Virus record (IMG/VR): IMGVR_UViG_3300019757_000006 | Origin: a virus | Taxonomy: Duplodnaviria; Heunggongvirae; Uroviricota; Caudoviricetes | Strand: one strand, 5' to 3' | DNA length: 64,000 bases | Shown here: positions 15,741 through 62,670 of the stretch, one piece after another | Layout: the number at the start of each line of letters is the position of its first letter | Numbering within the stretch: the stretch's first letter is position 1 | Position numbers and translations under genes: made by a program | Notes under the pieces: generated by a model | Database searches by the model: none | What the model saw: only the letters and a program-made list of their open reading frames with translations | What the model was told of the DNA's origin: nothing

Positions 15741-15797
15741 AAAACGTGATAGCTGGTCAACTATACTAAGCTATAGCTATCTTAAGCTAAGCTATTG
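15741..15797 (+). repeat. AGCTA-rich dispersed intergenic repeat, copy A
   Basis: aaaacgtgatagctggtcaactatactaagctatagctatcttaagctaagctattg. The reverse complement of copy C (41101..41163) matches it. Confidence 0.5.
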
Positions 15798-15807
15798 TAT
15801 AATAATA

Positions 15808-15870
15808 CTTTAGAATAAGTACATCAGAGTATAGATATATTATAATCAGATAAGATGATATAATTGAAAA
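15808..15870 (+). promoter_or_regulatory. conserved ~60-bp promoter-like block, copy 1
   Basis: ctttagaataagtacatcagagtatagatatattataatcagataagatgatataattgaaaa. Its 26-nt core agtatagatatattataatcagataa is identical at 34775..34800 and contains TATAAT-like hexamers. It lies ~160 bp upstream of gene 16027. Confidence 0.45.
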
Positions 15871-16026
15871 GTTATATTTTTTTATAGTCTATTTTTTGGC
15901 CCTGACGAGGGCATTATAAATACAATATTAAATATAAAAGGAGATCTTTTTTTATAGTTGTTAATTATTTTTTATAAATAATTAAACCGAGATTCGCGAT
16001 GAAAAAATTAAAAGGAGAGTCACACG

Positions 16027-16413
16027 ATGAATCATACCCCCGTATGTGCGGATAAAGAAAAAGTAAAGAAGCTTTTTTATTCCGTTTTAAAAGAGAAAAA
16101 ATGCTCTCATGAAGATTATACTCTTATTAAAAAATTAATACTAAATGAGGAACATAATGTTCTTTATTACAGAAGTGTAAATAATAATCCTTTTGGAAAA
16201 GGGATGTTGAAAGATTTAAGTATAAAAGAGGGAGAGGTATTTTATTTAAGAAAAAATGTTATTTTTGCTCAACATAAAACATTAGGATTAATTAAAATTT
16301 TAGGTATCAATACTAAAAGAAAAGATATCAAATTATATATAAAGGGTCAATTAGGTAACTTAATTATGGAAAGCACTACTCCAGTTTTAGTGCATAGTGC
16401 TAAGGTTGATTAA
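16027..16413 (+). CDS. hypothetical protein
   Basis: RBS aaaaggagagtcacacgATG. First gene after a 346-bp regulatory intergenic region. Confidence 0.5.
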   Translation: MNHTPVCADKEKVKKLFYSVLKEKKCSHEDYTLIKKLILNEEHNVLYYRSVNNNPFGKGMLKDLSIKEGEVFYLRKNVIFAQHKTLGLIKILGINTKRKDIKLYIKGQLGNLIMESTTPVLVHSAKVD

Positions 16414-17009
16414 TGAATTACTCTAAAGTTAAATTTAATAAATGTATTAGACTTCTTAAACCTATTGTAGATGCATTTTCAAGTACTATTGTTGGAATAG
16501 AAAGAGAGTATGTTATTGAAAGTATTTTTATTACTAAGAATAATCGAATAGGTGTGGTTATTTTAGGTAGTATGGGATTTAGATGTGGTTATATAAGTAT
16601 TGGAGAAAATGATTTATTAGAAGATTATGAATATTATGAAATTGATGTTCATGGTGGTTTAACCTATCAAGGAAAAGATAATATTGATGAAGTTATTAAA
16701 AACAAGTTAACTCCTGAAGAATTTAATTACATTAAAAAAAATATAACTTATATTGGATTTGATTGTGGCCATTATACTGATGGAAATTCTTATGCTGATT
16801 TAATAGAGTACGGAGTTGAAGTTGAACATCAATTTTCTATAGGTGGTCAAGTAAAAACTTTAGACTATGTTAAAAATGAAATTCAGAAAATGGATTCTCA
16901 ATTAAAAAAGACTAATATTAAAGTTAGAAAAAAGTTAGATACTTTAATTCAAACCAGATTAGTATTTGAAAGAGGTCGTTTTAAATTTAAAGGTAAAAAG
17001 AATGGGTAG
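16413..17009 (+). CDS. hypothetical protein
   Basis: 198-aa ORF whose start overlaps the previous stop (TAATG). Confidence 0.5.
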   Translation: MNYSKVKFNKCIRLLKPIVDAFSSTIVGIEREYVIESIFITKNNRIGVVILGSMGFRCGYISIGENDLLEDYEYYEIDVHGGLTYQGKDNIDEVIKNKLTPEEFNYIKKNITYIGFDCGHYTDGNSYADLIEYGVEVEHQFSIGGQVKTLDYVKNEIQKMDSQLKKTNIKVRKKLDTLIQTRLVFERGRFKFKGKKNG

Positions 17010-19089
17010 AGGAAACAGAAGTAGAAACCGAAGAAGAAGAAAAAAAAATAATAATTCTTCTGAAGAAAATACAGAAAATAGAGGTAGTTCTTTTTCTAAA
17101 CAGAGAAAAACTAAAGAGCAAAAAAAACAAGAGAAAATACAAAGAAAGAAGGAAGCGAAAATGGGTAAAAGAAAAAGTAATTTTTTAAGTAATGTGTCAG
17201 ATGCCGTATCAAATGCAATGAGTGTAAATAATTATTATGGTGGTGGTTATGGTTATAATGCGTTTCAGGTAACTAGACCAACTGATGGTGAAGAAAAAAC
17301 AACTTTAAATTTAGCAATCTTTTCACAAAAATTTTTAAATGATATTGCTGCACAATGTGTACCAGTAGCTGGTGGAGCTGAGTTCCAAACTCATTATAGA
17401 TGTTTACAAGTAGTAATTGGTAATGGTCAAGGTAGAGTTGTATTTACAATTCCTACTGTATTCTTTAACTTTCCTCAAACTGTTTCGACAGGTTCTGTTG
17501 ATTTTGATTTAAGAGAAGTAGATACTATTTCAGCTGGATTAAAAGAAAAATCAAATGAACTTGCTATGCAAATTGCAAATGTTTTTCCAAAAGCTTATTT
17601 TGAAGGTATGGGATTTAATGTATCATTTAGAGAAGGTGAAGTTGGAAGTATTCATAGACATCCAGGGGATTTCTCATTCTCGAGTATTGACTTAGATAAA
17701 GATCCTACAAATCCAGGGGTTATTTATAGACAAGGTAATGCAAAAGATGTTATTCAAACGGATTCTGTTTTATATATTCAAGGTGGAAATCATGTTAAGT
17801 TAGTAACTACTCAAACTAGAGTTGTTAATGTAGAAGCAGCTGAGGATGGTGGTGTTGCTGGAACATATGATAAAGCTAAAACTATTGCAATGATTTATAA
17901 AGATTCTGATACTACTCCAGAAATAGATACAACTGCTACGGAAATTGCTTTTGATCAATTTTTTATACCAGATGGAGAAACAGAACAACAAGGTGTTGCA
18001 GAAGTACTTACTCATTATTTAAATAGATTTGATGGTATTTCTCAAGGAGAAGCTGAAGGGTTTATTGAACATGCTGCTAAAGTTATGCAAATTTTAATTT
18101 CAAATAACTATACTGCAATTAACAAGATTGATCCAAATCTTATTAAACCACATTACCATTCTCCAAAAGTTACTTATAGTCGTAATAAAGCAAGTAATAG
18201 TAATACTAAGAGTCATTTCGCAAAAGATATTGGTACTGACTTAGATGTTAAAGATATGATGTTAAATGAAGTATTAGATTTCTTAAATATAGAACCTTCT
18301 AAATCTAAAATTACTGAAATTACTGATGAGGAAGTTAGAACATTATTCTGGAATTGTGCTGGAAATAAAAGTAATTCTGTAACAATATCTTGTTCTGATG
18401 GTACTATTAAATCAGATGTTATTACAAAAACAAGTGTATTAATTAAAGTAACTTTTACTCAAAAATTAGCTAAAGGTACTAGTACTAGTACTAGATATAT
18501 TCAAAAAGGGAATGGTAATGAGTACATTATCGAAGATAAACCTGAAATTACCCCAGAAGTAATTATAGAAGATGATGATGAAAGCAATATTATTCTTGAT
18601 TATAATGATGCTAGTATTGATCTTGATCATATCGAAACTGACGGAATAGATACCGTTCAAAATGATATTCCAGATATTATTGACGCAGATGCTACTAAAG
18701 CTATCCTTGATTCAGAACAAGAAGTAGAATCTATTGATACTATTACAGAAGATGATAAAGAGGAAACTAAAGAAGTTGGTGGTACTCAGGTTCAAGAAGT
18801 TAAAGAAAAAAAACCAGATTTAGATGAGGTTACTATAGATGATATTAAAAAGTTATTTAAGGAATCTTATGGAAAACAATTTACTGAATTGACCGTAGTA
18901 AATCAATTCCAAGTTGATGGTCTTAAGAAAATGTTATTGGTTTTAAAACCATTAGGTACAGAGTATCTAAGAATTAAAACAGAGAATGTAGAAATTTTTG
19001 CTGATGAATTGAATGATAAAGAGTGTTGTATTATTACATTAGAAACAGCTACAAACTCGTTTCCTAAGCCAATCGATTTATCGATTTAA
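17003..19089 (+). CDS. hypothetical protein with poly-basic N-terminus and acidic C-terminal region
   Basis: The ATG at 17003 (MGRGNRSRNRRRRKKNN) has RBS aaaggtaaaaagaATG. I preferred it over the track start at 16966, which would overlap the previous gene. The C-terminus has D/E-rich tracts. Confidence 0.55.
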
Positions 19090-19091
19090 TT

Positions 19092-20144
19092 ATGGATGTG
19101 GCCTTTATAAAGGATCCACATTTAATGTTTGGCTTTCGTAATTTAATTAGAAAGCCAGGTTGGGAAAATGATGTGATTCTAAAATTAGAAACTATTAAAA
19201 ATTTGATGATTGAAAGAGGATGTACTATTTTACTTTTCTCTGGAGATATGTTAGATAGAAGTAAATCTAAAGAATGGTCTTTTAAATTATATTTAAAAGT
19301 TTTAGAAGTACTTACAAAAATCTTTGTGGAAAACGGAATTAATATCTATAGTATTCAGGGTAATCATGATATGTTAGATGGTAATGAATCTGTCGAAGGA
19401 AGTGTATTTGGTAAGTTAGTTGAAGATGGTATTATTCATCATATAACTACTAATCCATTAGTACTTAATCTTCAAGATGAAGCTACTGGAAAACGGGTAG
19501 ATGTTTCTATTCAGGGTTTAGATTATACTGAGGTAAAAGAAAATATTCAATCTGGTATGGAGCGAATAAATTCTAGTACTTTAAATACGGAGATGATAAA
19601 TTGTATGATGACTCATACTAATATTACTCCAAATGAAACTCAAGTATCTGATTTTACGTATAAACATTTATCTGAAACTTATCCAAATATCGATATTCAC
19701 TTTTGTGGGCATTATCATTTAGGTTTTGAACCAGATAAAGTTAATAATACTACATTTATTAATCCTTGGAACTTAACTAGAGTTATAAGAGATTATAATT
19801 CTAGAATGGAGTTACATACTCCAGAAGTAACTTTTATAAATTTTATAAAATATTCAAAAGATGCTGAACCGGAGGAGTTTACTGAGGTAATTCAATTACC
19901 TCATAAATCTTTTTCAGAAGCATTCAGAGAGGAAGTTATAAATTTATTAGAGGAATCAGATAATGGTTTTAAATTCTTTAAAGAGGGAGTAGTTGATTTA
20001 GAAGAATTGCTTCAGAATCAGGAAATGACTGATGAAGAAATGATTTCGGTTTTAATTACTAAAACTCTTGAGGGAGTTCCAGATGAAAGAAAGAGCCTAA
20101 TTAAAAATAAGGTTCTTCAATATCTTGGAGAAGAAAATGTTTAA
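19092..20144 (+). CDS. Mre11/SbcD-like metallophosphoesterase nuclease (T4 gp47-like)
   Basis: Calcineurin-like phosphoesterase motifs appear in order: DPHL (DxH), LFSGDMLDR (GDxxD), IQGNHDM (GNHD), CGHYHLG (GHxH). Confidence 0.7.
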   Translation: MDVAFIKDPHLMFGFRNLIRKPGWENDVILKLETIKNLMIERGCTILLFSGDMLDRSKSKEWSFKLYLKVLEVLTKIFVENGINIYSIQGNHDMLDGNESVEGSVFGKLVEDGIIHHITTNPLVLNLQDEATGKRVDVSIQGLDYTEVKENIQSGMERINSSTLNTEMINCMMTHTNITPNETQVSDFTYKHLSETYPNIDIHFCGHYHLGFEPDKVNNTTFINPWNLTRVIRDYNSRMELHTPEVTFINFIKYSKDAEPEEFTEVIQLPHKSFSEAFREEVINLLEESDNGFKFFKEGVVDLEELLQNQEMTDEEMISVLITKTLEGVPDERKSLIKNKVLQYLGEENV

Positions 20145-20706
20145 TTATTATCCAAGTAAAATAGATACTTATTGGAAATCCGACCCATTAGATAAAAGAA
20201 GATTTTTAGCCAGTTATATGCATTATTTATCTTTAATTAAATTATGTCATAAAGCTCAAGAGAATGGAAAAACTATTGGTTGGGAAATTAAAGAAATATT
20301 AGATTTATCCGCGAAGGATGTTTCTAATTATTATTTTAAACTTAAGTACTTATCGTATTATAAAGTATCAATCTCTCCAAAGATGGTAAAGGATAAAGAA
20401 TCGAAAGAATATTTATTTAATATTAATCTAGAGGGTGATGAGTTAATAGATATAAAGCATAAAGATAACGTGGCTGCATTATATGATAATATATGTGCAG
20501 TTATTGGTGATTATGATTTATATAAAGAGGAAGCTGTTTTAGATATGGGATTACTAGTTCCAGGTAAAAATATGTTCGTTTTAAATAATAGAGACTTAGT
20601 ACAAGTTGAAGAATTTAAAGATAGTCTAGTTAATTTCTTATTAACAGAACCATATACAAAGTTAGAAAAAGGTTCGAAAGTAATCGGATCACTTGTATTT
20701 AAATAA
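20125..20706 (+). CDS. hypothetical protein
   Basis: 193-aa ORF that overlaps the end of the nuclease gene. Confidence 0.5.
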   Translation: MEKKMFNYYPSKIDTYWKSDPLDKRRFLASYMHYLSLIKLCHKAQENGKTIGWEIKEILDLSAKDVSNYYFKLKYLSYYKVSISPKMVKDKESKEYLFNINLEGDELIDIKHKDNVAALYDNICAVIGDYDLYKEEAVLDMGLLVPGKNMFVLNNRDLVQVEEFKDSLVNFLLTEPYTKLEKGSKVIGSLVFK

Positions 20707-20717
20707 AGGAAAAAAAA

Positions 20718-21779
20718 ATGAAAAAAAATTTTGAAGAGTTTACAAATAGTTTACAAGGTGGTAGTTGTTTAAATAAAAACGATATTCTGCATCCAAATGG
20801 TCTTCCAAATATTGGAAAAATTATGGATAAATTAAAAAGTGGGGTGTACTCAAATGCTGGTGGAATCGATACTAAAATAATTGAAGGTAACTTAAAAAAA
20901 GTAACTGAGATGATTGAAAATAAAGAAGCTCCAACTGCAGTATTAAAGCAATTATTTAATGGTATTCCAGGTATTTCTGATACTATTGCAAGCCTATCAG
21001 ATGAAGATTTATTAAATCCTGAAGCGGCAATTAAAAAAATTAAAGAAAATGTTCAAGCTGGAAAGACTGGATATACTGGTTGTAAAACTTGTAGTACTCC
21101 AGACCCAAAACCAAAGTCGGTAAATGATAAAGAGATGTTAGAACTTACTGCTTTACTTAGAATGATTGATCCAACTCAACAATTTATTACAGAGCTGGAA
21201 GCTATCAGACTTAAGCCAGCTAAGTTTGTAAAAAATGTAAAGAAGCTAATTAAAAAATTAGTGAAAGATAGAGAAGGGTTTGAAGCTACTTTAGAATATT
21301 TAAAAGTAGATGATTTCTCAATGCAAAATTTAGCTGAATTATTAATTCAAGATACAAAACCATCTTTAAAAAAATTATCGGAAAAGTTATTAAATAGTTC
21401 TGATATGCCAGAAGAATTAAAAAAACCATTAAAAGCAGTTTCAAAAATGATTGGTTCTTTAGATACTCTTGGTTCTATCGAAAATGCAGATGAAGAAACA
21501 GTTAAAAAAGCATTTAAACCACTTGGTAAAGAGATGAAAAAATTAACGGCAGAGGCTAGAAATAAACCGGAAAATGCTGGTTTATTAAAAGAGTTAAAAA
21601 AACTTAAAAAAAATTATCTATCTAATAAAATTGCAAAAGAAGCTGCAATGAAAAAAATTCTTGATCTTCAAATTCAGGACTTGAATCCTGAAAGAGCTAT
21701 GATTTGCCAATCGTTTCTTCTAGAGGAAATTGATGGCTTTATGAAAAAAGAAGAGGAAGATAATAAAAAAGGTAAATAA
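20718..21779 (+). CDS. hypothetical Lys-rich alpha-helical protein
   Basis: 353-aa ORF with RBS aaaggaaaaaaaaATG. Very K/E-rich. Confidence 0.5.
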   Translation: MKKNFEEFTNSLQGGSCLNKNDILHPNGLPNIGKIMDKLKSGVYSNAGGIDTKIIEGNLKKVTEMIENKEAPTAVLKQLFNGIPGISDTIASLSDEDLLNPEAAIKKIKENVQAGKTGYTGCKTCSTPDPKPKSVNDKEMLELTALLRMIDPTQQFITELEAIRLKPAKFVKNVKKLIKKLVKDREGFEATLEYLKVDDFSMQNLAELLIQDTKPSLKKLSEKLLNSSDMPEELKKPLKAVSKMIGSLDTLGSIENADEETVKKAFKPLGKEMKKLTAEARNKPENAGLLKELKKLKKNYLSNKIAKEAAMKKILDLQIQDLNPERAMICQSFLLEEIDGFMKKEEEDNKKGK

Positions 21780-22586: not shown

Positions 22587-22588
22587 TT

Positions 22589-22873: not shown

Positions 22874-22901
22874 TAGGAAGTTCCGAGGAACTTCAACCGC
22901 T

Positions 22902-25544
22902 ATGGAAGCGGTATATAAATATCTAAATAAAAAAATTAAAAATCAAAAGGCGAACCAGATGATATATAAATCACTTACAACAGAATTATTAGAGTTAATT
23001 AAAGCGGCATTATTAAAAGCAAGAGAATATAGATTAATGGAATTAACTCCAGAAGTTTTATTAGAAATGATTTTAACTAAAGATACAATCGTTAGAAATA
23101 TTCTATTGAATTTAGAAATTGATATTGAAGGTGTACTTAACCAACTTAGATTAAGTATTGAAAAAGACCCTATTAAATTTCCAGCGGAAATAGTAAATCC
23201 GGAAGAGATGAATGTAACATTTAGTACAAAAATTGAAGAGCTGTTTGCTATTGCATATCAACAAGCATCTTCAAATAAAGATAAATATCTTGCATTAGAT
23301 ATTTTAATGATAGCTGGTAATGAATTACCAATTATCGAATACCTTAGATCGGTAATGGATGTTCAAATGTTATTTGATGATCTAGTACTTCTTAGAGGGG
23401 ATAGAAAGATTTCGGAAAAAAGTTATATTGAACAATCGTATTTAAATACATATTGTGAAAATTTAAATGAGAAATATCTTGCAGGTAAAATTGATGAAGT
23501 TCATGGTAGAAATGAGCAAGTTGAAAGAATCTCAAATATTTTAAATAAAAGAACTAAAAACAATCCTATTTTAGTAGGACCTCCAGGTACAGGTAAAACT
23601 GCAATCGTTGAAGGTTTAGCTGGTAGAATTTGTACTGGAGATGTAGAGAACCTAACTCAAGCAATTATTTGGGAATTAGATTTAACTGCATTAGCTGCTG
23701 GTGCAGGTGGTAAAGGTGAACTTGAAGCTAGAATGGATGGTTTAATGAAAGAAATCAAAAGAAAGAATGGTATGGAAAATGAAGATATTATTCTATTTAT
23801 TGATGAAGCGCATACTATAATTGATCCACAAGGTGGAATGGATTTAGCTAATGTACTTAAGCCAGCTTTAGCTAGAGGAGAGCTTAGAACTATTGGTGCT
23901 ACTACTTTAAAAGAGTATCAAAAATATTTCGAAAAAGATCCAGCAATCCAAAGAAGATTCCAAATTATTAATGTTGATGAGCCATCGGTTGAAGAAACTA
24001 TGGTAATCCTTAGAGGATTAAGACCAAAGATGATGGAATATCATAAAGTTGAAATTACAGATGAATCTTTAATTGCTGCTGCAAAATTATCTAATAGATA
24101 TATTGCTGATAGATTTCTTCCAGATAAAGCTATTGACTTATTAGATGAGGCTGCTTCTCAAGTATCTAATTCTAAATTTCAAACTCCAGTGGAAGTAAAA
24201 GATTTAAAATTAGAAATTGATAATAGAGTTTTTAGAATTGAAGTTCTAGAAAAATCTAAACTTGGTTCTGATAAAGAAGTATTTATTAATAGACAAAATG
24301 AATCTATTGCAAAATTAAATGAAGAAATCGAAGAGCTTTCTAAAGAAATGGAAGAGATGATGAATCACTTCTTAGAAGAGAAAGAAAAAAGAAAAGAGTA
24401 CATTGCAATTAAACATGAAATCAAAGAGAGAAACGATGAGTTAAATGATTGTCTTGCTGAAAGTAAAATTGAAGAAGCTTTTGAATTAAGAGTTAATATT
24501 ATTCCTGCGTTAGAAGCTAGATTAGAAGAGATTGGAAATACTTTTGAAAAGAGTACTGTAAAACCAGATGATATTACAACTGTATTATTTAACTGGACAG
24601 GTATTCCAACTGATAAAATCCAAGAAGATGAAGATCACTCTAAAGTAAAAGATATAGCTGAATTATTAAAAACTCAAGTTATGGGTCAAGATGAATCTTT
24701 AGATGCAGTGTCTAGAGTTATTAGAAGAAACAAAGCTGGTTTATCAGATGCTGGAAAACCTATCGGTTCATTTATGTTCCTTGGGCCTACTGGTGTTGGT
24801 AAAACTGAAACTTCTAAAGCTGTTGCAGATATCGTATTTGGTAGTTCAAAAGATATGGTTAGATTCGACATGTCTGAATTCCAACAAGAGCATACAGTTT
24901 CAAAACTTATAGGTTCTCCTGCAGGTTATGTTGGACATGATGATGGTGGTCAATTAACTAATGCAATTAAAAGAAAACCTTATTCTGTAATCTTATTTGA
25001 TGAGATTGAGAAAGCTCATCCAAAAGTTTTTGATGTACTTTTACAAGTACTTGATGATGGTAGACTTACAGATGGTAAAGGTATTACAGTAGATTTCAAA
25101 AATACTATTATTATTATGACAAGTAATATTGGTGGTAAAGAGTTAGCTGAAATTCCAAATGCGGCGGTAAGAAAACAAGAAGCTAAAAGAAAACTTCTAG
25201 AAACATATCGACCTGAATTCTTAAATAGAATGGATGAGATTTTAGTATTTAATCCATTAAATGTAGAGTCTTTAGTAAATATTATGAACTATAGAATTGA
25301 AAAATTATCTGATAAATTATGGGAAGACAGATACATTGATGTAAAAGTTTCTCCAGAAGCTAAAGGTAATATGCTTGATACTATTGATATTGGTGTTGAT
25401 GGTGCTAGACCAATTAATAGATTAATTGCTTCTGAGATTGAAGATAGAATTACAGATTTAATTCTAGAAGATAATGTAAGAAGTGGTTCTGAAATCGTAA
25501 TTGATTTAGATGAAAATAATGAGATCTTTGTTGCCACTCTATAG
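22902..25544 (+). CDS. ClpB/Hsp104-like double AAA+ ATPase (class I Clp ATPase with middle coiled-coil domain)
   Basis: Two Walker A motifs, VGPPGTGKTAIVEGLA and FLGPTGVGKTETSKAVA. Walker B motifs ILFIDEAH and VILFDEIEKAH. A ~120-aa coiled-coil insert lies between D1 and D2. The real start may be the internal MIYKSLTTELLELIKAAL at 22961. Confidence 0.85.
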   Translation: MEAVYKYLNKKIKNQKANQMIYKSLTTELLELIKAALLKAREYRLMELTPEVLLEMILTKDTIVRNILLNLEIDIEGVLNQLRLSIEKDPIKFPAEIVNPEEMNVTFSTKIEELFAIAYQQASSNKDKYLALDILMIAGNELPIIEYLRSVMDVQMLFDDLVLLRGDRKISEKSYIEQSYLNTYCENLNEKYLAGKIDEVHGRNEQVERISNILNKRTKNNPILVGPPGTGKTAIVEGLAGRICTGDVENLTQAIIWELDLTALAAGAGGKGELEARMDGLMKEIKRKNGMENEDIILFIDEAHTIIDPQGGMDLANVLKPALARGELRTIGATTLKEYQKYFEKDPAIQRRFQIINVDEPSVEETMVILRGLRPKMMEYHKVEITDESLIAAAKLSNRYIADRFLPDKAIDLLDEAASQVSNSKFQTPVEVKDLKLEIDNRVFRIEVLEKSKLGSDKEVFINRQNESIAKLNEEIEELSKEMEEMMNHFLEEKEKRKEYIAIKHEIKERNDELNDCLAESKIEEAFELRVNIIPALEARLEEIGNTFEKSTVKPDDITTVLFNWTGIPTDKIQEDEDHSKVKDIAELLKTQVMGQDESLDAVSRVIRRNKAGLSDAGKPIGSFMFLGPTGVGKTETSKAVADIVFGSSKDMVRFDMSEFQQEHTVSKLIGSPAGYVGHDDGGQLTNAIKRKPYSVILFDEIEKAHPKVFDVLLQVLDDGRLTDGKGITVDFKNTIIIMTSNIGGKELAEIPNAAVRKQEAKRKLLETYRPEFLNRMDEILVFNPLNVESLVNIMNYRIEKLSDKLWEDRYIDVKVSPEAKGNMLDTIDIGVDGARPINRLIASEIEDRITDLILEDNVRSGSEIVIDLDENNEIFVATL

Positions 25545-26023: not shown

Positions 26024-26068
26024 CTAAAGATAGTTAGCTTAGTATAGTGAGCTAGCTACCAGCTAAAT
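26021..26068 (+). repeat. AGCTA-rich dispersed intergenic repeat, copy B
   Basis: tagctaaagatagttagcttagtatagtgagctagctaccagctaaat. It overlaps the stop codon of 25544..26023 and matches the reverse complement of copy D. Confidence 0.5.
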
Positions 26069-26101
26069 AAAAAAAATTAAATATAAAAAGGAAAGACCAA
26101 A

Positions 26102-26560
26102 ATGGCAAAAAAAATTAAATTAACAGATATATTAGTAAACTTAACTCCGGAACAAGCAGAAGCAAATAAAAAAAAATTACTTAAATTAGAAGAGCAAAAA
26201 AATGAACATATGACTGTTATTAGAGATTTCGATTCTGAAATTGCTGAACTTGTAAAACAAAAAAATCTTGTTGTTACAAAAATAGATGTTATTCATAAAA
26301 AACAAGAAGCTTTAGTTCCAAAAGGGGCTACACTAGATACTCTATCAGCAAAATTCTTTTGGAAGATTTCTGATACAGCTGTAATTGAAGATGCTGATGC
26401 TTTACCAACTGAGGTTCTTAAAGATGTTGCTGCAGTTCCAGCTCACACAAAACCAGATAAAACGTTAATTAAAAAATACGCTAATGATCATGAGGGTGTT
26501 TGTGCTGGAGCAAGAATTGACCAATCATTTTCATTCCAAATTAATGAAAAAACGCTTTAA
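26102..26560 (+). CDS. hypothetical protein
   Basis: RBS aaaaaggaaagaccaaaATG. 152 aa. Confidence 0.5.
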   Translation: MAKKIKLTDILVNLTPEQAEANKKKLLKLEEQKNEHMTVIRDFDSEIAELVKQKNLVVTKIDVIHKKQEALVPKGATLDTLSAKFFWKISDTAVIEDADALPTEVLKDVAAVPAHTKPDKTLIKKYANDHEGVCAGARIDQSFSFQINEKTL

Positions 26561-26737
26561 TGTTTATTGGTATAAAAAAAATTAAGACAATTTGATACTA
26601 TGGAAAACGCAATTAATTGTCTAATATTTTTTTAGTGGATTTTTAAGTGCTGGATCAGTTAGTATAAAAAAAGGTAGAGGACAAGGTTTTCCAAATGGAA
26701 GATTTTGTCCTAAGCCAAAAATAAAAAGGAACAATAA

Positions 26738-34607: not shown

Positions 34608-34754
34608 TTTACCTCCAACTCTTAAAAATTATTTTTTATTGTGTCTTGATATATTTTTGTTAATCCTGGACTAATAAGTCCAATCTTAAAAAATGGAAAA
34701 ATTATTTTTTTTATTATGATTATGCAAATTAGTTCTAGAATTTGCATGGACTAA

Positions 34755-41100: not shown

Positions 41101-41163
41101 TTAGCTGGTAGCTAGCTCACTACCTCCAGCTATAGCTTAGTATAGTGCTCCAGCTATCACGTT
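41101..41163 (-). repeat. AGCTA-rich dispersed intergenic repeat, copy C
   Basis: ttagctggtagctagctcactacctccagctatagcttagtatagtgctccagctatcacg. Its reverse complement matches copy A. Confidence 0.5.
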
Positions 41164-56437: not shown

Positions 56438-56472
56438 TATTACACTCCTTAATTTTAGGTAATTTATTTGGA

Positions 56473-56509
56473 ATAGCTAATAGCTAGCTCACTATAGCCA
56501 GCTATTTAG
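56473..56509 (-). repeat. AGCTA-rich dispersed repeat, copy D (in the 68-bp region upstream of the giant fibre gene)
   Basis: aatagctaatagctagctcactatagccagctatttag. Its reverse complement matches copy B. It overlaps the stop of 56506..58983. Confidence 0.5.
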
Positions 56510-58983
56510 TGTTTAATTGTTAATTGTATATCATCTACATTAAAATGAAAGAAAGGTGGACAAAAATCTAAAAGAGTATTAATGTCGGCGTTCGCATCAT
56601 TTTTAATATTATAATAAATGGTATCCGCATCATTGACAACGAACATACTAGGGGATAGTACTTCAATATTTTTAATAAATGATGTACTTACAGTTGTTTG
56701 TTTGTATTTTTCATATATAAAATTTTCCAATTCCGATTCGAAATATTCTATTTTAAAGCCAATCTTTTGTTTGAAAAATGTAACAATATCTAATTTTATA
56801 CTTAGCTCTAAATCCTGAATACTGTCAAAACTATTCTCAAGAATAAAGTTTTCTTTATCTATATATACATCTAAAATAACATCTAATTTAGGATTACTCT
56901 TATTATAATTATTATTTATTTTAAATAGATAATCTTGATATTGTGGTGCAATATCTACCGTATTAAAGAACGATTGGGATACTCTTGTATTATAAGCAAT
57001 CTTATCTTTTGCATCATTAACCGCAAAGAAACTATCCAATGTACTAAATAATTCTTCCCAGTTGCTTTGAGTAAAATATTCTTTTTCTATATAAGGTAGT
57101 CTAAGTAAATGAACTATCTCATCTTTAGTAAATGGATCTAAAATTGCATCTACTGGTACTAATAAATCTCTTAACTCATTATCTAAATATTCTAAAGTAA
57201 TATTACTTGTATCGATAGCCAGATCGGCTGCCCCATCTACATGTTCGAAATATTTATATATAATTTGCTTAGGAATTAATTGATAATAACTATCATACGC
57301 GCTATAGTATTGAATAATTTCATTATATTCAAAATCTTGAACTGATAAAGTTAATTCAGTAACCTCTTCTTTAATAATACAATAAGCATCTGTAAACATA
57401 GTATTTACTTCCCAAGTAAAATTATTCCCAAAATCTAATTGAAAATCAAAATTCTTAGTACTTACTTTATATATTTTATCAGAAGCTGCCCCACTAGTAA
57501 TAGTAAAATAAGATTTCTGTCTAATAAAATCATATTTAATATCTAAATTAATTTGATTATTAAAAGCTACATCTTTAAGAGATACCATATCCTGAGCAAG
57601 CTTAATTGAAATACTTGGATTAACTATATAAGCTTCTGTTTCATTATTACTTAAAAATTTATAATAAAATGGAGATACAAAAGTTTTTCCGGCATAATCT
57701 ACTTCTGGATAAAAAGGATTTTCTGCTATATGAGTTTCTGTTTGATTTAAAGAAACTGTATCAATAAGGGTATTATTTTTATCTTTTAAAGCATCGAAAA
57801 TAAATAAAAATGATCTAGCATCTAAAAATTTAGCATCCACATATGGAATACTATCATTAATTTGGAAATACTTTTCAAAATCATTTACACTCGTAAGACT
57901 ATTTCGATAAGATAATTTATTAAAAATATTTTGTCTTATCTCTTCAATACTTTGGATATTATTTCCACCAGTTCCACCAATAACAGATACTCCATTAAGA
58001 CTACTTTTAAGTAGTCTAGTTTCCCCAGTATAGGTAACAGTTTCTGTATTTATATCCTGCAATAAAAATTGCATATTACTTAGATTTCCAGTTTCTCCAA
58101 GGGTAGTAACAATTTCAAGAATAATTTCATTATTAGCAGCTAGATACATTCCTGTTCTACCATCTCCAGTTTCAAAAGTAATACTATTACTATAAATCTG
58201 TAAGAATAAATCTAGATCATAAGCAGAACTACCAAATTTATAATATTTAGTACCAAATTTAGGATAACCTTTTATTCCTTCTATCTCATCAGTGGTTAAG
58301 GTATCGATCGAATCTAAGTTAGCTGGTTCAGATGATGAATTAAGCCAAGCATTAGTTGATACTAATCCTTTATAATCATGAATACTTTGCGAGAAAGAAA
58401 ACGTTTCCCCTATATTATAATTAGGAACTATAATCTTTTTTAATTCCCTTTTCTGTTGAAGAACTCCAGTATAATTTACTAAATAAATATAAGAACCTTC
58501 ATTAACTGGATCAGGAGCTCTTGTAATACTTAATTCCGTTTTATTTACGGAACTATAAGCAAAAGCTTGAACTTTACTAGCTGACATTGTAATTTGAATT
58601 CTTTCTGGAATCATGTAATCAATTCCCGAACTATCGTTAAATAAAGTATTCTTTTCAATATTAAATGTTTGGTATCTTATATTATCGAATGATAATTCTG
58701 GTACAATAAAACTTATATTAAAAGTAGATGGTTTTGCTAATTGTATTTCTGATTTATATATAGTACTATGAAATAATAATGAATTAAAATCTTGAGCCAA
58801 TCCTGGATTCATTTCTCTAAACATTTTACTATAAAATTGTTGAACATCGAATTTGATATTAGTAAGGTAATTAGTAAGTATTCCTAATGCTCCAGATTTT
58901 AATAAAATGGGATTAGTAATATTTAAATTACTTTGTATTAATTCTTCAAATTCGGCTTGCGTTACTTCGAACGTTTTACTCAT
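56506..58983 (-). CDS. large structural protein (baseplate-wedge-like by position)
   Basis: 825-aa ORF immediately upstream (in transcription order) of the fibre genes. No enzymatic motifs. Function inferred from context only. Confidence 0.45.
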   Translation of the reverse strand: MSKTFEVTQAEFEELIQSNLNITNPILLKSGALGILTNYLTNIKFDVQQFYSKMFREMNPGLAQDFNSLLFHSTIYKSEIQLAKPSTFNISFIVPELSFDNIRYQTFNIEKNTLFNDSSGIDYMIPERIQITMSASKVQAFAYSSVNKTELSITRAPDPVNEGSYIYLVNYTGVLQQKRELKKIIVPNYNIGETFSFSQSIHDYKGLVSTNAWLNSSSEPANLDSIDTLTTDEIEGIKGYPKFGTKYYKFGSSAYDLDLFLQIYSNSITFETGDGRTGMYLAANNEIILEIVTTLGETGNLSNMQFLLQDINTETVTYTGETRLLKSSLNGVSVIGGTGGNNIQSIEEIRQNIFNKLSYRNSLTSVNDFEKYFQINDSIPYVDAKFLDARSFLFIFDALKDKNNTLIDTVSLNQTETHIAENPFYPEVDYAGKTFVSPFYYKFLSNNETEAYIVNPSISIKLAQDMVSLKDVAFNNQINLDIKYDFIRQKSYFTITSGAASDKIYKVSTKNFDFQLDFGNNFTWEVNTMFTDAYCIIKEEVTELTLSVQDFEYNEIIQYYSAYDSYYQLIPKQIIYKYFEHVDGAADLAIDTSNITLEYLDNELRDLLVPVDAILDPFTKDEIVHLLRLPYIEKEYFTQSNWEELFSTLDSFFAVNDAKDKIAYNTRVSQSFFNTVDIAPQYQDYLFKINNNYNKSNPKLDVILDVYIDKENFILENSFDSIQDLELSIKLDIVTFFKQKIGFKIEYFESELENFIYEKYKQTTVSTSFIKNIEVLSPSMFVVNDADTIYYNIKNDANADINTLLDFCPPFFHFNVDDIQLTIKH

Positions 58984-59000
58984 AATATTTTTCCTTTCTT

Positions 59001-59918
59001 CTATTTTTGACTTATACTAGCGAATTGAGTAAATAAATAAGCTAAACTTTTTTCATCTTCTGCGCTTTTAGCAAAATGATCCCAACCAGAATAAAAAGCA
59101 TACTGCATATCCATAAATTTATATTGCATTGCATAAGTTCCAACTTTTGGACCGCCTCTATCGCCTACTAAATTTTTAAATGGTAAATTAACTGGAAGAA
59201 TTCCAAATAAAGTTATTAGTCCAGTAATATTATAAGTCTTTGGTTCAAATAATACTATATGCATTGCATTACTATTTGGATTTTGAATTAGATAATCATG
59301 TTTATTTTCATTATGTCTTGCGAACAATAAACCTTCTCTAATCAATTCTATACTTTTATGCCAAGCTTCATGATATTTAAATACATCTAATTCTTTATTA
59401 TCTATATAATTACATGTAAAATCGGACCCAGCAAATTCTCTAGTATTAATAAAAGAATTCTTTTGTCTTGTACTAATTGCAATATATTCTTTAGATGGTT
59501 CCGGTAAATCAATATCTGTAATCATTCTACTAAAATTTCTTATAAGAATTTTATCGTTAGGGTCTGTATTAGTCAGACTCCCAATTAATGAGCTTTCGTA
59601 ATTATCTATTTTCTTTTTATCCCTAGAACTTATATAATTAACCGCTTTATTAGAATCTGGAGCTGCCCGTAAAGCATCTAACCAAGGACCATGTTGCATA
59701 AAGACTGCATAATTTCCACTTGTATATGGATCGAAATCAGAATAACCCCAACCTAATTTATAAGATAAGTCTTTTAAAAAAGAATGTAATGAATTATTCT
59801 TATCTTCGAATATTCCTTCTCCTTCTAATTTTCTAGCAAGAAGGTCTTTTATATGATCATGATAACCATCTTTATATGGATCCCCATTAGCTTTTAAAAA
59901 TTTCTGTTCTTCAGCCAT
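59001..59918 (-). CDS. hypothetical structural-block protein
   Basis: 305-aa ORF preceded by the conserved 29-bp leader plus TATAAAATA and RBS aaagga. Confidence 0.45.
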   Translation of the reverse strand: MAEEQKFLKANGDPYKDGYHDHIKDLLARKLEGEGIFEDKNNSLHSFLKDLSYKLGWGYSDFDPYTSGNYAVFMQHGPWLDALRAAPDSNKAVNYISSRDKKKIDNYESSLIGSLTNTDPNDKILIRNFSRMITDIDLPEPSKEYIAISTRQKNSFINTREFAGSDFTCNYIDNKELDVFKYHEAWHKSIELIREGLLFARHNENKHDYLIQNPNSNAMHIVLFEPKTYNITGLITLFGILPVNLPFKNLVGDRGGPKVGTYAMQYKFMDMQYAFYSGWDHFAKSAEDEKSLAYLFTQFASISQK

Positions 59919-59934
59919 ATTTTTTCCTTTATTA

Positions 59935-59963
59935 TTTTATAAGTTTTAGTTAGTTCTTTTTTT
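59935..59963 (-). promoter_or_regulatory. conserved 29-bp late-promoter-like leader, copy 2
   Basis: Identical to 42064..42092. Minus-sense aaaaaaagaactaactaaaacttataaaa, then taataaaggaaaaaatATG. Confidence 0.45.
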
Positions 59964-59977
59964 TAGCTATCCTTTTT

Positions 59978-60026
59978 GCGTAGTTTTAACTACGACAGGA
60001 ATATCTCCTTCCTACTGGAAGGAGAT
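59978..60026 (-). terminator. double stem-loop + TTCCTGTCGTAG element on the stop of 60026..60988
   Basis: Minus-sense atctccttcc-agta-ggaaggagat hairpin, then attcctgtcgtagttaaaactacg. The second part is a small palindrome, cgtagttttaactacg. Confidence 0.45.
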
Positions 60027-60988
60027 TATATATGAGATTCTGGTAAATCTTTTCTAAATGTTCTATTTATTTTATCCATATTTTTTAATATATCGGTACT
60101 TCTATTTTGTAGTAAACCATTAATATCAGTATTCTTAATATCTAAACTTCTTATTAAATTTAGATTATCTTTTGGTAAACAAGCACCACCAACTCCAGAT
60201 TGACCATCAGATGAAAATATTAATTCCTCTTGAGATGGTAATGGAAGGAGTCCAAGTAATTCATTTAATTTTCTAGGATCGGAATCAAATAATTCCGGTA
60301 AAGAGGCATTAAATAAATATTGATACATAGCTAAGGTATTTCTATAGTACTTAAATTCCATAGCTTCCATTTCAGTACAGCTAGTTTCTATTACAAAATC
60401 AAATGATAACATTCTATCCATAAAGAATTGGAACTCTTCTATTACTTGAATATTTCCACCTACTATATTCGGCTTCGTTTTGAATTCTTCAGTAGCATTT
60501 CTAGCATTTAAAAATTCAGGCCAGTATAATAAATTTAATTCTTCTGTATCACATAAATTACTTACTTCACTTGGAAGACAAGTACTCTTTATAGTAACGA
60601 TACCTTTAAAATTATTATCTATTAAGAAATTTAAATTTTCAGTAATACCAGATAAAGTTTCGACGATAGATTGTTCGTGATTAGTAGGAACAGTGATAAC
60701 TACTATAGTACAAGTTAATAAATCTTCTTGATTATCTTGATATCGTTTTTCTTTACTATAAATTACCGTTCTTTTTTTAGCACAGTCTCTTAAATTATTA
60801 TAGATAGCTTGATTAACTACTCCAAAACCTATTAATCCTAATCTTGGTCTATCGTCCGACCATCCTAAATCTGGTGTTGATTGGTAACCATCTAAATTTA
60901 ATATTTTATCCATCTCAAGTAATTCTTCTGGTGTTGGTAATTCTTCTATTTTATATATTGTTTCTGAGTCAACATAATTAGTTTCCAT
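60026..60988 (-). CDS. UDP-glucose/GDP-mannose dehydrogenase family protein, C-terminally truncated
   Basis: N-terminal Rossmann motif GLIGFGVVNQA. PEFLNARNA matches the family EFLREG motif. GVGGACLPKD matches the catalytic-Cys motif GGSCFPKD. Only ~45 aa follow the Cys, so the C-terminal UDP-binding domain is absent. Confidence 0.6.
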   Translation of the reverse strand: METNYVDSETIYKIEELPTPEELLEMDKILNLDGYQSTPDLGWSDDRPRLGLIGFGVVNQAIYNNLRDCAKKRTVIYSKEKRYQDNQEDLLTCTIVVITVPTNHEQSIVETLSGITENLNFLIDNNFKGIVTIKSTCLPSEVSNLCDTEELNLLYWPEFLNARNATEEFKTKPNIVGGNIQVIEEFQFFMDRMLSFDFVIETSCTEMEAMEFKYYRNTLAMYQYLFNASLPELFDSDPRKLNELLGLLPLPSQEELIFSSDGQSGVGGACLPKDNLNLIRSLDIKNTDINGLLQNRSTDILKNMDKINRTFRKDLPESHI

Positions 60989-61005
60989 TTAAATATCCTT
61001 TGTTA

Positions 61006-61034
61006 ATTTAACGACAGTGATTTAAATCACTGTC
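61006..61034 (-). terminator. stem-loop + TGTCGTTAA element containing the stop of the small ORF 61022..61216
   Basis: Minus-sense gacagtga-tttaaa-tcactgtc hairpin; the stop codon sits in its loop. It is followed by gttaaattaacaaaggatatttaaATG. Confidence 0.45.
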
Positions 61035-61216
61035 ACGTTTACCCATTTCGGGTTGGTTATTCTACCACTTGTTAAACTCATATTCATATAACATTGAATT
61101 ATATTTATATGTTCTAACCAGTACCAATAACCATCTATTTTTTTAGGGAGAGTACAATAAGTTCGTACGATTCTTTTCTCCCCTAATTCAGGCTTCTTAG
61201 AATATATCCTAAACAT
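61022..61216 (-). CDS. small hypothetical protein
   Basis: 64-aa ORF bracketed by repeat copy F upstream and a hairpin at its stop. Confidence 0.3.
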   Translation of the reverse strand: MFRIYSKKPELGEKRIVRTYCTLPKKIDGYWYWLEHINIIQCYMNMSLTSGRITNPKWVNVTVI

Positions 61217-61232
61217 TACAGTCCTTTTCTTA

Positions 61233-61277
61233 AATAGCTAAGGAACTATACTAAGCTAAAAGCTATTCGTAGCTATC
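61233..61277 (-). repeat. AGCTA-rich dispersed repeat, copy F
   Basis: aatagctaaggaactatactaagctaaaagctattcgtagctatcg. It shares ctatactaagcta with copy A. Confidence 0.4.
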
Positions 61278-61355
61278 GAGTTTCCTACTTAGCGTTCAAC
61301 CTTGCTATTGGGCTATTAATTCATACTCCAACTTGAGTAGGTCTTAATGCATCCA

Positions 61356-62561
61356 TTATAATCCTTTACATAATAATATTTTAATATACGTTATTAAACT
61401 AACCATAACAATCTTTTTATATCGATAATCAAGCTGAGTACTTAGTTCACCATTTTGTTCAAAGATAGCTTTCGTGATACCTGCAACTAATTCTTTCGCT
61501 TTCTGAAAACTCTCTTCTTTTCTAGCAGAGTTAATTTTATTAGCAAGTACCTCAATATTTAAAGCACAAATCTCTTCTTCTGATTTAGGTTTAATTCCAC
61601 TAATAATTAATTCTATAAAATATTTTAAATCTTCCTCATTCTCATCATTATCTAACCAGTTATCTATTTTAGAAATTACCGCATCAGAAATAAAGAATTT
61701 TTTATAAAGGAATTCTTTGGGGATTGGTTTTTGAAGTACTTTTCTTTTTAGCACAGCATTCTTAGAAACTTTATCAGCAACTCTTTCTACAATACCAGAG
61801 AAGTGTTCATTTCTTTCTACCATATCAGAACCACTATCAAATGAATCTTTTTGTAAAGAACCAACCGCTTCTTTTTTACCTTCTTTATAAGATCTATAAT
61901 AAGCCTCTGCAATACCTTTAAGTAATTGATTATATCTACTTCTAAGAGTACTAATAATTCTTTTTAAACCACCATATACATCCATAGGATTAGCGGCAAT
62001 CTCAGCTGGATATTTAGCTTCTAATGCTGGTACTGATAATTTAAGAATATAACCAAATGGAGTTCCATGTTTTTTAAATGTATGATTACCTTGTAATTCA
62101 TAATTAATAACATATCTAGCAATATCGGGATTACATACTTTTGGAAAGAATCTCATTTTATAATAATTCCAGATACGAACTGAAATAAGCGTTAATGAGT
62201 ATTGTCTCAACTCTGGATCATCTTGATCTAATCCAATAAGATACCCTAACATTAATGTTAAGTAATAAATATCATCATATACGGAATAATCTTTTAGATG
62301 AAATTGTTTCATCTCTTCTTTTAATTCTCTTTCATTTAGCCCAAACAATTTTAACATAAGAGTTGGTAATTTTTTTGGGTATAAAAAGTAATCGCAAAAT
62401 GAATCATGTTTCATACTATCTTGCATTAATTTATGAGTACCCATTTGTAAATAATGTTTTAAAGTAGTCATTGCCAATTTATCATTTTTAAATTTATCTA
62501 GTACTGCTATCATTCTAGGTGATATATCTTTTCTATTTAGTACTGCTTTTGGTGGAGTCAT
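61356..62561 (-). CDS. hypothetical protein
   Basis: 401-aa ORF. Upstream, in mRNA sense, lie ctatataaaaag, the RBS aaagga, then ATG. Confidence 0.5.
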   Translation of the reverse strand: MTPPKAVLNRKDISPRMIAVLDKFKNDKLAMTTLKHYLQMGTHKLMQDSMKHDSFCDYFLYPKKLPTLMLKLFGLNERELKEEMKQFHLKDYSVYDDIYYLTLMLGYLIGLDQDDPELRQYSLTLISVRIWNYYKMRFFPKVCNPDIARYVINYELQGNHTFKKHGTPFGYILKLSVPALEAKYPAEIAANPMDVYGGLKRIISTLRSRYNQLLKGIAEAYYRSYKEGKKEAVGSLQKDSFDSGSDMVERNEHFSGIVERVADKVSKNAVLKRKVLQKPIPKEFLYKKFFISDAVISKIDNWLDNDENEEDLKYFIELIISGIKPKSEEEICALNIEVLANKINSARKEESFQKAKELVAGITKAIFEQNGELSTQLDYRYKKIVMVSLITYIKILLCKGL

Positions 62562-62606
62562 ATTTTTTCCTTTATAATAACTTTTTATATAGTCTATAAT
62601 ATCTAT

Positions 62607-62670
62607 TATAGCTAAGTATAGATCTATAGTTTGCTATATTTAGTTAGCTAGCTATAGTGAGCTAGTTCTT
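62607..62670 (-). repeat. AGCTA-rich dispersed repeat, copy E
   Basis: tatagctaagtatagatctatagtttgctatatttagttagctagctatagtgagctag. It shares gctatagtgagctagc with the reverse complement of copy D. Confidence 0.5.

Follow-up and report, generated by a model that had tools for sequence, protein, structure and literature searches.

AGCTA-rich intergenic repeats in an uncultured jumbo phage: anatomy, conservation, and a possible role at transcription-unit borders

The stretch of DNA analyzed here, hereafter the window, comprises 64 kb of the 224.7-kb (224,699-nt) genome of an uncultured jumbo phage (27.8% GC; virus record IMGVR_UViG_3300019757_000006), and the element in question is a family of short AGCTA-rich repeats dispersed between its genes. 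The window encodes T4-type topoisomerase II subunits, ClpB, SbcCD-like proteins, thymidylate synthase, and a PolB fragment, and its replication genes are T4-like, with a gp52-like topoisomerase II protein at about 30% identity. An earlier reading of the same letters (the original prediction) claimed six AGCTA-rich clusters, called A to F, and all of them were recovered at the coordinates given below, far beyond what chance would produce. That description proved accurate in its essentials, the exceptions being a GIY-YIG gene at a convergent junction and a strict absence of copies from coding DNA.

Anatomy and distribution of the repeats

A sliding count of AGCTA and its complement TAGCT found exactly six sites in the window with at least six of these pentamers per 60 nt, all of them intergenic, versus a maximum of four per 60 nt in coding DNA. 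The original prediction regarded a similar density inside genes as an argument against the family; no such clusters occur there, and the claim that the copies lie only in noncoding gaps holds for the six full clusters, although it has to be relaxed for a single 29-nt partial copy within a 7.4-kb open reading frame (ORF). The bare pentamer AGCTA is frequent in coding DNA, with 232 occurrences in the window versus 171 ± 16 expected, roughly 40 of which fall inside the six clusters (a hand count of four clusters, extrapolated to six); the signal is therefore a composite unit and not AGCTA alone. This unit, TAGCT-N5-ACTATA-N3-AGCTA, is 24 nt long and common to all copies, and it occurs five times exactly and 12 times with up to two mismatches, versus a mean of 0.03 at the latter stringency in 30 dinucleotide-preserving shuffles. 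Within the unit and its flanks, the 14-mer ACTATACTAAGCTA is found exactly four times in the window (A and F on the plus strand, B and C on the minus strand) and the 14-mer TAGTGAGCTAGCTA exactly three times (B on the plus strand, C and D on the minus strand), the latter having seven matches with up to two mismatches versus 0.51 expected. The family is thus statistically unambiguous, and, as the comparisons with related phages indicate, it is also evolutionarily constrained.

The proposed inverted relationships were confirmed as well. C matches the reverse complement of A over 46 nt at 87% identity, and D and B have the exact 16-mer TATAGTGAGCTAGCTA in common in opposite orientation; the pairs B and C (32 nt, 94% identity) and D and E (34 nt, 85% identity) are also inverted relative to each other.

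The 24-nt unit stands alone, pairs with an inverted copy of itself, or carries accessory modules, namely the extension GTGAGCTAGCTA, which forms a 9−11-bp hairpin, and the tail TAGCTATCTTAAGCTAAGCTA. Three guises can be distinguished on this basis. Type A, represented by A, F, and the right half of C, has TAGCTATCTTAAGCTAAGCTA after the unit, and A itself also has ACTCGGTTTAAAAACGTGA before it. In the hairpin type, represented by B, D, the left half of C, and the degenerate E, the other strand of the unit is extended to TAGCTTAGTATAGTGAGCTAGCTA-YY-AGC, and the upstream arm pairs with GAGCTAGCTA to give the 9−11-bp stem. The third guise is the inverted pair, in which two units stand back to back, as in C. 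Folding indicates that the palindromic character of A and F is only weak. Across the copies, and across two genomes whose coding DNA can no longer be aligned, a core of 16−24 nt is nearly invariant.

Three of the copies adjoin terminators consisting of a hairpin followed by TTTTCCTGTC(G), in agreement with the predicted proximity to hairpin/CTGTCG elements. Copy A (15729−15797, plus strand) consists of the leader ACTCGGTTTAAAAACGTGA, the exact unit TAGCTGGTCAACTATACTAAGCTA at 15750−15773, and the tail TAGCTATCTTAAGCTAAGCTA, and it lies between the terminator of the topoisomerase gene, with its CCTGTCG, and a promoter-like block called D9, an arrangement that is also seen in related contigs. 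Copy C (41102−41156) occupies both strands, with one unit at 41109−41132 (plus strand, two mismatches) and an inverted one at 41133−41156 (minus strand, exact), and it is placed between the two terminators of a convergent junction. Copy E (62609−62668) is a degenerate composite, TAGCTAAGTATAGA ... TAGCTAGCTATAGTGAGCTAGTTC, whose unit at 62645−62668 on the minus strand has two mismatches; on one side it has a hairpin+CCTGTC terminator and on the other a D9-like ATAGATATTATA box that precedes the gene for a 401-aa protein.

Copy F (61235−61275, plus strand) contains the exact unit TAGCTAAGGAACTATACTAAGCTA at 61235−61258 plus AAAGCTATTCGTAGCTA and, read on the minus strand, is located just upstream of the Shine-Dalgarno sequence (SD) and ATG of a 64-aa ORF at 61022−61216. 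A GIY-YIG endonuclease gene had been placed with E and F at a convergent junction, and neither part of this statement was borne out. The 401-aa ORF between E and F has no Pfam or PHROG match, a six-frame motif scan for GIY-YIG was empty, and the neighbors of E and F are all on the minus strand; the convergent junction is that of copy C.

The remaining two copies occupy short gaps between co-directional genes, starting at, or one base past, the stop codon of the upstream gene and ending about 43−44 nt before the next ATG. Copy B (26021−26065, plus strand) reads TAGCTAAAGATAGTTAGCTTAGTATAGTGAGCTAGCTACCAGCTA, an imperfect palindrome whose minus strand carries an exact unit at 26035−26058; it starts within the stop codon of the gene at 25544−26023 and, as predicted, precedes the gene at 26102, ending 36−43 nt before its ATG. 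Copy D (56474−56504, minus strand) reads TAGCTGGCTATAGTGAGCTAGCTATTAGCTA in the direction of the genes, with an exact unit at 56481−56504 on the plus strand, and RNAfold gives it a 9-bp stem that reaches about 11 bp if extended by hand. It starts 1 nt past the stop codon of a gene for an 825-aa protein, 43−44 nt before the ATG of the gene for a 2483-aa protein (the 7.4-kb ORF). The gap holding D is 68 nt long, as stated for the proposed promoter region of that gene.

The partial copy mentioned above, TTAGCTGGAGATAGTGAGCTAGCAACAAGC, is located at about 52945−52983 on the minus strand, within the same giant ORF (48986−56437); over 29 nt it is identical to copy C at 26 positions by hand count. 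Read in the sense of the ORF, which encodes a repetitive fiber-like protein, it is in frame (DRLAGDSELATS). At this patch the 2483-aa protein aligns without gaps to orthologues of 47% and 32% identity, and the patch is therefore a replacement and not an insertion. Most simply, it would be a gene-conversion tract that has overwritten coding DNA.

Finally, the gap that holds copy A (15681−16026) had been described as the longest noncoding stretch of the window and as a candidate for replication-origin iterons. The gap is among the longest in the window, yet Tandem Repeats Finder returned nothing between 15600 and 16100. The GC skew, which peaks where the strand switches at 41 kb and does not inflect at 15.7 kb, reflects which strand is coding and is uninformative as to an origin. 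Furthermore, the copies of the composite are dispersed over 47 kb, with inverted ones among them.

Conservation and turnover among related phages

The 825-aa protein encoded beside D has graded homologues at 78−28% identity, and the longer contigs that carry them measure 115−290 kb; the phage is thus part of a clade of uncultured jumbo phages. Among the GenBank phages (INPHARED) there is no close relative, the only match being 242 nt of ClpB-like sequence in Staphylococcus phages, and a topoisomerase-based search did not return one either. Loci collinear with the window were found in relatives at 77% (L223 and L231), 73% (L228), 55% (L224), and 48% (L226 and L230) protein identity. An RNA polymerase (RNAP) β-like subunit of about 1030 aa (Pfam RNA_pol_Rpb2_6) is encoded by the 55% relative (L224, 3696−6776) and by the metagenome contig Ga0193964_1000026 (c26 segment, 2070−5195), from which it follows that the clade has a multisubunit RNAP of its own. 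The clade is therefore an RNAP-encoding jumbo-phage lineage with T4-like replication genes.

In the viral and metagenome collections, the exact core of the hairpin type was found outside the window in only three contigs (81, 74.6, and 74.3 kb), all from metagenome Ga0193964. These contigs belong to the same phage family, because their RNAP β-like and RecJ proteins are 61% and 58% identical, respectively, to those of the 55% relative. When about 105 kb of the Ga0193964 contigs was compared with the window by BLASTN, almost nothing aligned except intergenic signals, which did so at 80−100% identity and comprised AGCTA elements of either type, D9, and terminators. The sole coding match was 169 nt at 72%, and the proteins in the sampled regions are hardly alignable. 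The intergenic signals are therefore strongly conserved between genomes whose genes have diverged almost beyond recognition.

By using TAGTGAGCTAG as an anchor, 17 hairpin-type copies were collected from the window and the three Ga0193964 contigs, and the 16-mer TATAGTGAGCTAGCTA is intact in 14 of them. Nine copies point at an ORF start 21−43 nt downstream (the ninth distance was counted by hand), three are reversed between co-directional genes, and another three, at or near convergent junctions, face a terminator hairpin 25−45 nt away; the last two are a copy joined with a tail of type A and a D9 block and the copy inside the giant ORF. Inverted pairs occur in C and in contigs c26 and c16. 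Two of the Ga0193964 copies are located just upstream of nuclease genes, one for a SegE-type GIY-YIG protein (E = 1.6e-22) and the other for a putative nuclease resembling DUF2726/DUF559.

Elsewhere the repeat was not encountered. No copy of the core occurs in 185,579 reference genomes of bacteria and archaea, 80 other ClpB-carrying viral loci (1.2 Mb) lack the motif, and a 14-mer scan of viral contigs gave mostly chance matches. An origin of the repeat in a host genome was considered and rejected, as a 20-mer had no matches and the sole match of an 18-mer, in a contig of 43% GC, is attributable to chance. As a side observation, a contig of the same phage in a public short-read assembly (L128, Logan SRR7051569) breaks inside copy B, at window position ~26033, as is expected for a dispersed repeat, and assemblies of this clade may be fragmented at the repeats more generally. 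An exact-protein look-up intended to lengthen the window recovered only short Logan contigs.

Site-by-site comparison with the collinear relatives gave a mixed picture. At site A, the 73% relative has retained, in the gap that follows its topoisomerase gene, the terminator with CCTGTCG, a single exact unit, and D9; the unit, however, lies on the other strand and is linked to another module, CTGGGAACCATAACTAGCTAT, and an extra 114-aa ORF marks a gene insertion or deletion (indel) between the two phages. At site C, the orthologous convergent junction of the 77% relative again has an AGCTA-family cluster between its two terminators. At site F, the same relative has the unit and tail upstream of a similar small ORF (with a YWLE motif in common, by eye) and an extra 104-aa ORF adjoining it, while at site E it has kept only the gene-proximal, D9-like part. 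The elements at borders (A, C, F, and in part E) have thus been kept during evolution, but rearranged or inverted.

The situation is different for the two copies inside operons. The gap of the 73% relative orthologous to that of B is 32 nt long, lacks the element, and follows upstream genes that have been replaced. Site D of the 77% relative is occupied by a perfect but unrelated 13-bp hairpin, GTACTAATTTTAC-tta-GTAAAATTAGTAC, overlapping the stop codon of its 824-aa gene (L223, 12476−12534), and in the 55% and 48% relatives the corresponding gaps, 15 and 40 nt long, contain neither hairpin nor element. A stem-loop between the 824/825-aa gene and the giant gene may be selected in its own right. 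Because B and D are absent from orthologous sites of close relatives, these copies are recent and dispensable. In response to the concern in the original prediction that the copies might not be conserved in related phages, it can be said that the family is conserved, but only at some of its sites. Gene indels or replacements accompany three of the six sites (A, B, and F), whereas D and E show no change in gene content.

The subtype GTGAGCTAG is absent from about 150 kb of the syntenic relatives. The 55% relative has instead different TAGCTA-rich repeats, TAGCTATTTGCTAGCAAATAGCTA and CAGCTATAGCTA, in long gaps near its RNAP gene and upstream of its structural operon, and a neighboring motif, ACTCGGTT(T)AAAA, is common to these repeats and copy A. 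Its 460-nt gap upstream of the structural operon (L224, 8620−8990; L225, 80−470) is a tandem TAGCTA-rich array with a period of about 150 nt by eye; the number of array units differs between the two assemblies of this locus, and the perfect palindrome TAGCTATTTGCTAGCAAATAGCTA is nearby.

Two other kinds of signal accompany the repeats. The D9 block, which is not a member of the family, is a 79-nt element at 15807−15885 (plus strand) with a second copy at 34754−34832, and it contains TATAGATATATTATAAT and a second box, TGnTATAAT (extended −10), followed by a short hairpin and a T-run. The two window copies are 81% identical, with two TATAAT boxes, one of which has the extended TG; versions in relatives (L008, L131, L140−L142, L228, and L231) are 79−93% identical to the window, and the 73% and 77% relatives have an exact match to the 17-mer TATAGATATATTATAAT. 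D9 matches the description of the early promoters of jumbo-phage virion RNAPs, although it could also encode a very short transcript or an attenuator. The order of unit, tail, and D9 recurs in the window and in contigs c27, c26, and c16.

The second kind is a terminator family, with members at 15660−15705, 33060−33097, 41166−41200, 42084−42124, 59980−60025, 60995−61030, and 62679−62715, each of which has a hairpin rich in G+C, in many cases with a C(UUCG)G tetraloop, and then (T)TTTCCTGTC(G). Resembling the leader ACTCGGTTTAAAA of copy A and also present 3′ of terminators in relatives, the tail TTTCCTGTC may signal termination or restart to the phage RNAP. In addition, a motif, AAAAAAGAACTAACTAAAACTTATAAAA, precedes the SD of two structural-module genes (42049−42124 and 59919−60025, minus strand), and copy E resembles this motif with an 18-nt AGCTA insertion (AAGAACTA / GCTCACTATAGCTAGCTA / ACTAAA).

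Other features of the window bear on the phage more than on the repeats. Genes of the 7-deazaguanine pathway encode GTP cyclohydrolase I (2747−3520), a DUF6884 protein (9128−9571), and a QueC-like protein (21780−22586), which suggests that guanine in the phage DNA is replaced by a 7-deazaguanine derivative; such a replacement could affect the recognition of G-containing motifs such as AGCTA. The PolB-like ORF (446 aa, within 6522−9127) covers only part of a DNA polymerase and is followed on its 3′ side by two 220-nt coding-looking "gaps" and two small ORFs, so the polymerase gene may be split or interrupted. The nearest cellular homologues of ClpB are from Campylobacterota and a hydrothermal-vent metagenome, which provides only a hint of the host. 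Rfam (at gathering thresholds) and ARAGORN found nothing in the whole window, PDB sequence searches of three large window ORFs gave no match, and a full-text literature search with motif strings and sample accessions returned no papers.

Possible function and mode of spread

The original prediction offered three roles for the repeats, namely binding sites of a phage transcription factor, replication-origin iterons, and homing-endonuclease-associated repeats. The first is the most compatible with the invariance of the core and with its position at unit borders beside terminators and D9. That a protein binds the repeats, that they affect regulation, and that they spread through recombination are all inferred. 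Its specific form, a middle or late activator site upstream of operon starts, is too simple given the mixed orientation of the copies, the one located between convergent terminators, and the lack of B and D in relatives. We favor, with a probability of about 40%, a reading in which the repeats would be a lineage-specific family of protein-recognized, partly palindromic intergenic elements that mark the borders of transcription units and spread by recombination.

According to this reading, the 24-nt unit would be the recognition module for a sequence-specific DNA-binding factor of the clade. Its primary home would be the border between transcription units, either after a hairpin+CCTGTCG terminator and before a promoter-like block or between convergent terminators, where its role would be that of an operator, enhancer, or boundary site in the phage transcription program. 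Being nearly identical, the copies may double as portable homology, and recombination or gene conversion among them would move, invert, and duplicate them, would accompany gene replacement, and would place new copies, such as B and D, in short gaps inside operons. The inverted unit at site A of the 73% relative, the inverted pairs, and the mixed directions of the copies fit a site that works in either orientation. Recombination is favored by the indel and replacement junctions at A, B, and F, by the in-frame patch of the giant ORF, which came without an indel, and by the assembly break inside B. Likewise, the different TAGCTA repeats of the 55% relative, together with the common ACTCGGTT(T)AAAA motif, are expected if a protein and its site coevolve, and the occupancy of borders in diverged relatives, along with the TAGCTA theme in the 55% relative, argues for selection.

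Several observations weigh against this reading. Pfam and PHROG scans of about 50 window proteins revealed no binding protein or candidate regulator. In 16 of the 17 hairpin-type copies the forward strand is more stable as RNA, since by hand analysis all mismatches are G·U on that strand, and this hints at a directional or RNA-level role. Between co-directional genes, nine copies are forward and three reversed, a bias that is suggestive and not significant, and that a symmetric DNA site leaves unexplained. The absence of B and D from close relatives is equally expected of a selfish element, and the comparisons cover only parts of the related genomes, with small counts.

The alternative that survives best is still unlikely in our judgment. 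The repeats could be selfish, nonautonomous palindromes resembling miniature inverted-repeat transposable elements (MITEs) or REPINs, which are doublets of repetitive extragenic palindromic (REP) sequences, copied by a transposase or nuclease encoded elsewhere and without function for the phage. The extragenic copies, their two orientations and occasional inverted doublets, their near identity to one another, and the presence/absence differences of B and D relative to the 73−77% relatives would all be accounted for. The same applies to the copies in untranscribed space between convergent terminators and to the subtype GTGAGCTAG, whose 17 copies in the window and Ga0193964, contrasted with none in about 150 kb of relatives, resemble a recent burst. 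However, inspection of the B-type copies gave no consistent pattern of target-site duplications, and neither a Y1 transposase of the REP-associated tyrosine transposase (RAYT) type nor any other transposase was found by Pfam and PHROGs among the about 50 window proteins scanned (64 of 224.7 kb). Furthermore, the copy number is low, about six per 64 kb, and the occupancy of sites A, C, and F in diverged relatives and the TAGCTA theme in the 55% relative speak for selection.

A second alternative, which we consider doubtful, is that the repeats are directional promoters for the phage multisubunit RNAP or a sigma-like factor, with TATAGTGAGCTAGCTA as the core and the start just downstream, in which case 5′ ends would be expected 5−10 nt after TATAGT or after GCTAGCTA. 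The nine of 17 hairpin-type copies that point at an ORF start 21−43 nt downstream, a core as invariant as a phage-polymerase promoter, and the RNAP β-like subunit of the relatives are in line with this proposal. A simple −35/−10 scan found no sigma-70-type promoter in the gaps of B and D, the sole strong candidate near A being the extended −10 of D9, and therefore any promoter that the genes behind B and D have of their own must be unconventional. On the other hand, three copies are reversed, and another three, located at or near convergent junctions, have a terminator 25−45 nt in front of them; site A of the 73% relative carries the unit inverted, and the orthologues of the genes downstream of B and D lack the element in the 73−77%, 55%, and 48% relatives. 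Moreover, the known promoters of jumbo-phage multisubunit RNAPs are not 24−46-nt palindromes, and D9 fits their early type better (PMC7598289).

Two more specific promoter readings were discarded. The complement of the core reads TAGCTAGCTCACTATAG and contains CTCACTATAG, which is the −9 to +1 part of the T7 promoter; such a promoter would fire antisense into the upstream gene at the nine gene-proximal copies, and no T7-like single-subunit RNAP domain was detected in the large window proteins scanned. The resemblance is regarded as a coincidence. Similarity to the T4 Mot box (TAGCTTA versus TGCTT) or late promoter (TATAGTGA versus TATAAATA) was also rejected, as the spacing to −10-like hexamers varies between the subtypes, by inspection.

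The stability of the forward strand raises the third alternative, an improbable one, in which the repeats act in RNA as intercistronic stem-loops, that is, as processing sites or 3′-end stabilizers that set the expression of neighboring genes, like REP sequences or the RNase III sites of T7. Fourteen of the 17 hairpin-type copies fold into a stem of roughly 9−11 bp directly after a stop codon, the mismatches are G·U on the usual mRNA strand, and the 77% relative has a different, perfect hairpin at the site of D. By contrast, RNAalifold on 15 copies returned nine pairs only, consisting of the 5-bp TAGCT/AGCTA stem, one adjacent pair, and a separate 3-bp stem, with zero compensatory changes; one possible compensatory pair in L140, noted by hand, was not detected by the program. 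The stem register differs between subtypes (hand analysis), one forward copy lacks the 5′ arm, and what is invariant in the hairpin-type copies is the sequence of the loop and 3′ arm rather than the structure. An RNA-level role would also leave the reversed copies, those between terminators, and the nonhairpin copies A and F without explanation.

The two other roles offered at the outset, origin iterons in the gap at 15681−16026 and repeats dependent on a homing endonuclease, can be set aside as very improbable, since that gap, long as it is, has no tandem array and no skew inflection and its composite recurs at several loci, while the only two copies next to nuclease genes, the SegE GIY-YIG and DUF2726/DUF559-like ones, are in Ga0193964, none being at any window copy, and distant relatives carry DUF723 endonuclease genes without AGCTA repeats.

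At present, the non-early regulatory signals of jumbo phages that carry their own RNAP are unpredictable from sequence (PMC7598289). The clade described here offers clear, sequence-defined intergenic signals (the AGCTA units, D9, and the CCTGTCG-tailed terminators) that stay nearly identical while the genes diverge. These signals provide handles for finding the cognate DNA-binding factor, for mapping transcription units in metatranscriptomes, and for work on gene replacement in large phage genomes as driven by short repeated cassettes. Should the repeats prove to be no more than selfish, a virulent phage with REP/MITE-like elements would still be a rarity among documented cases.

Comparison with known systems

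Several known systems resemble the repeats in part. Cluster A mycobacteriophages have stoperators, which also are many copies of one short site placed in short intergenic gaps near stop and start codons, and whose sequence coevolves with a phage-encoded DNA-binding protein. Stoperators, however, are 13-bp asymmetric sites, strictly oriented with transcription and part of a temperate immunity system, whereas the orientation of the AGCTA units is mixed.

Early promoters in jumbo phages that encode an RNAP share with the repeats the occurrence of conserved, bioinformatically detectable motifs upstream of operons. For the multisubunit RNAPs of phages such as phiKZ and AR9, these are AT-rich early motifs of about 10 nt centered near −10, or else minimal late motifs (PMC7598289). 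This description fits D9 (TATAGATATATTATAAT) and not the 24−46-nt, G/C-containing AGCTA palindromes.

The PeSL and PmSL cassettes of T4-type phages, which were reportedly described by Arbiol in 2010, are closer. As in the present case, they are short, conserved, composite intergenic motifs repeated through a large myovirus-type genome, they include a stem-loop and are placed just upstream of an SD and ATG, they are concentrated at indels and gene replacements between close relatives, and they are thought to act as portable homology; the phage of the window, moreover, has T4-like replication genes. The cassettes combine a stem-loop, a promoter, and SD motifs at indel junctions, and PeSL is defined by a terminator stem-loop with a sigma-70-type −35/N17/−10 promoter, PmSL having a Mot box plus −10 (Comeau 2014, PMC4122927). 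The AGCTA unit has neither a sigma-70 nor a Mot promoter, it occurs in both orientations, in inverted pairs, and between convergent terminators, and its clade has its own multisubunit RNAP. What resembles a PeSL in the window is the whole A region (terminator, AGCTA element, and D9), and not the AGCTA element alone.

The likeness to REP sequences, to the bacterial interspersed mosaic elements (BIMEs) that they compose, and to REPINs is of another kind. These too are imperfect palindromes of ~20−40 nt, extragenic (apart from the one partial copy in an ORF seen here), single or in inverted pairs, often located at operon ends and convergent junctions, and variable in presence between relatives. 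REPs serve as protein-binding sites (for gyrase and IHF) and as mRNA-stabilizing hairpins. They differ in being chromosomal, present in hundreds of copies, and tied to the RAYT transposase, whereas the AGCTA repeats are found in a phage genome at 6−7 copies per 64 kb, with no RAYT among the scanned window proteins and with only weak palindromes in A and F. Thus, membership in either PeSL/PmSL or REP/BIME fails on a defining feature, the promoter in the former case and the copy number and type of replicon in the latter. It is nonetheless conceivable, although we hold it to be rather unlikely, that the family is a phage counterpart of REP/REPIN, in which the unit and its inverted doublets multiply and homogenize in jumbo-phage genomes, to the point of replacing part of a coding gene in frame, and are co-opted as border or operator sites for a multisubunit-RNAP program; if so, the AGCTA repeats would represent a new class of cis element for jumbo phages, in which middle and late signals otherwise escape prediction from sequence.

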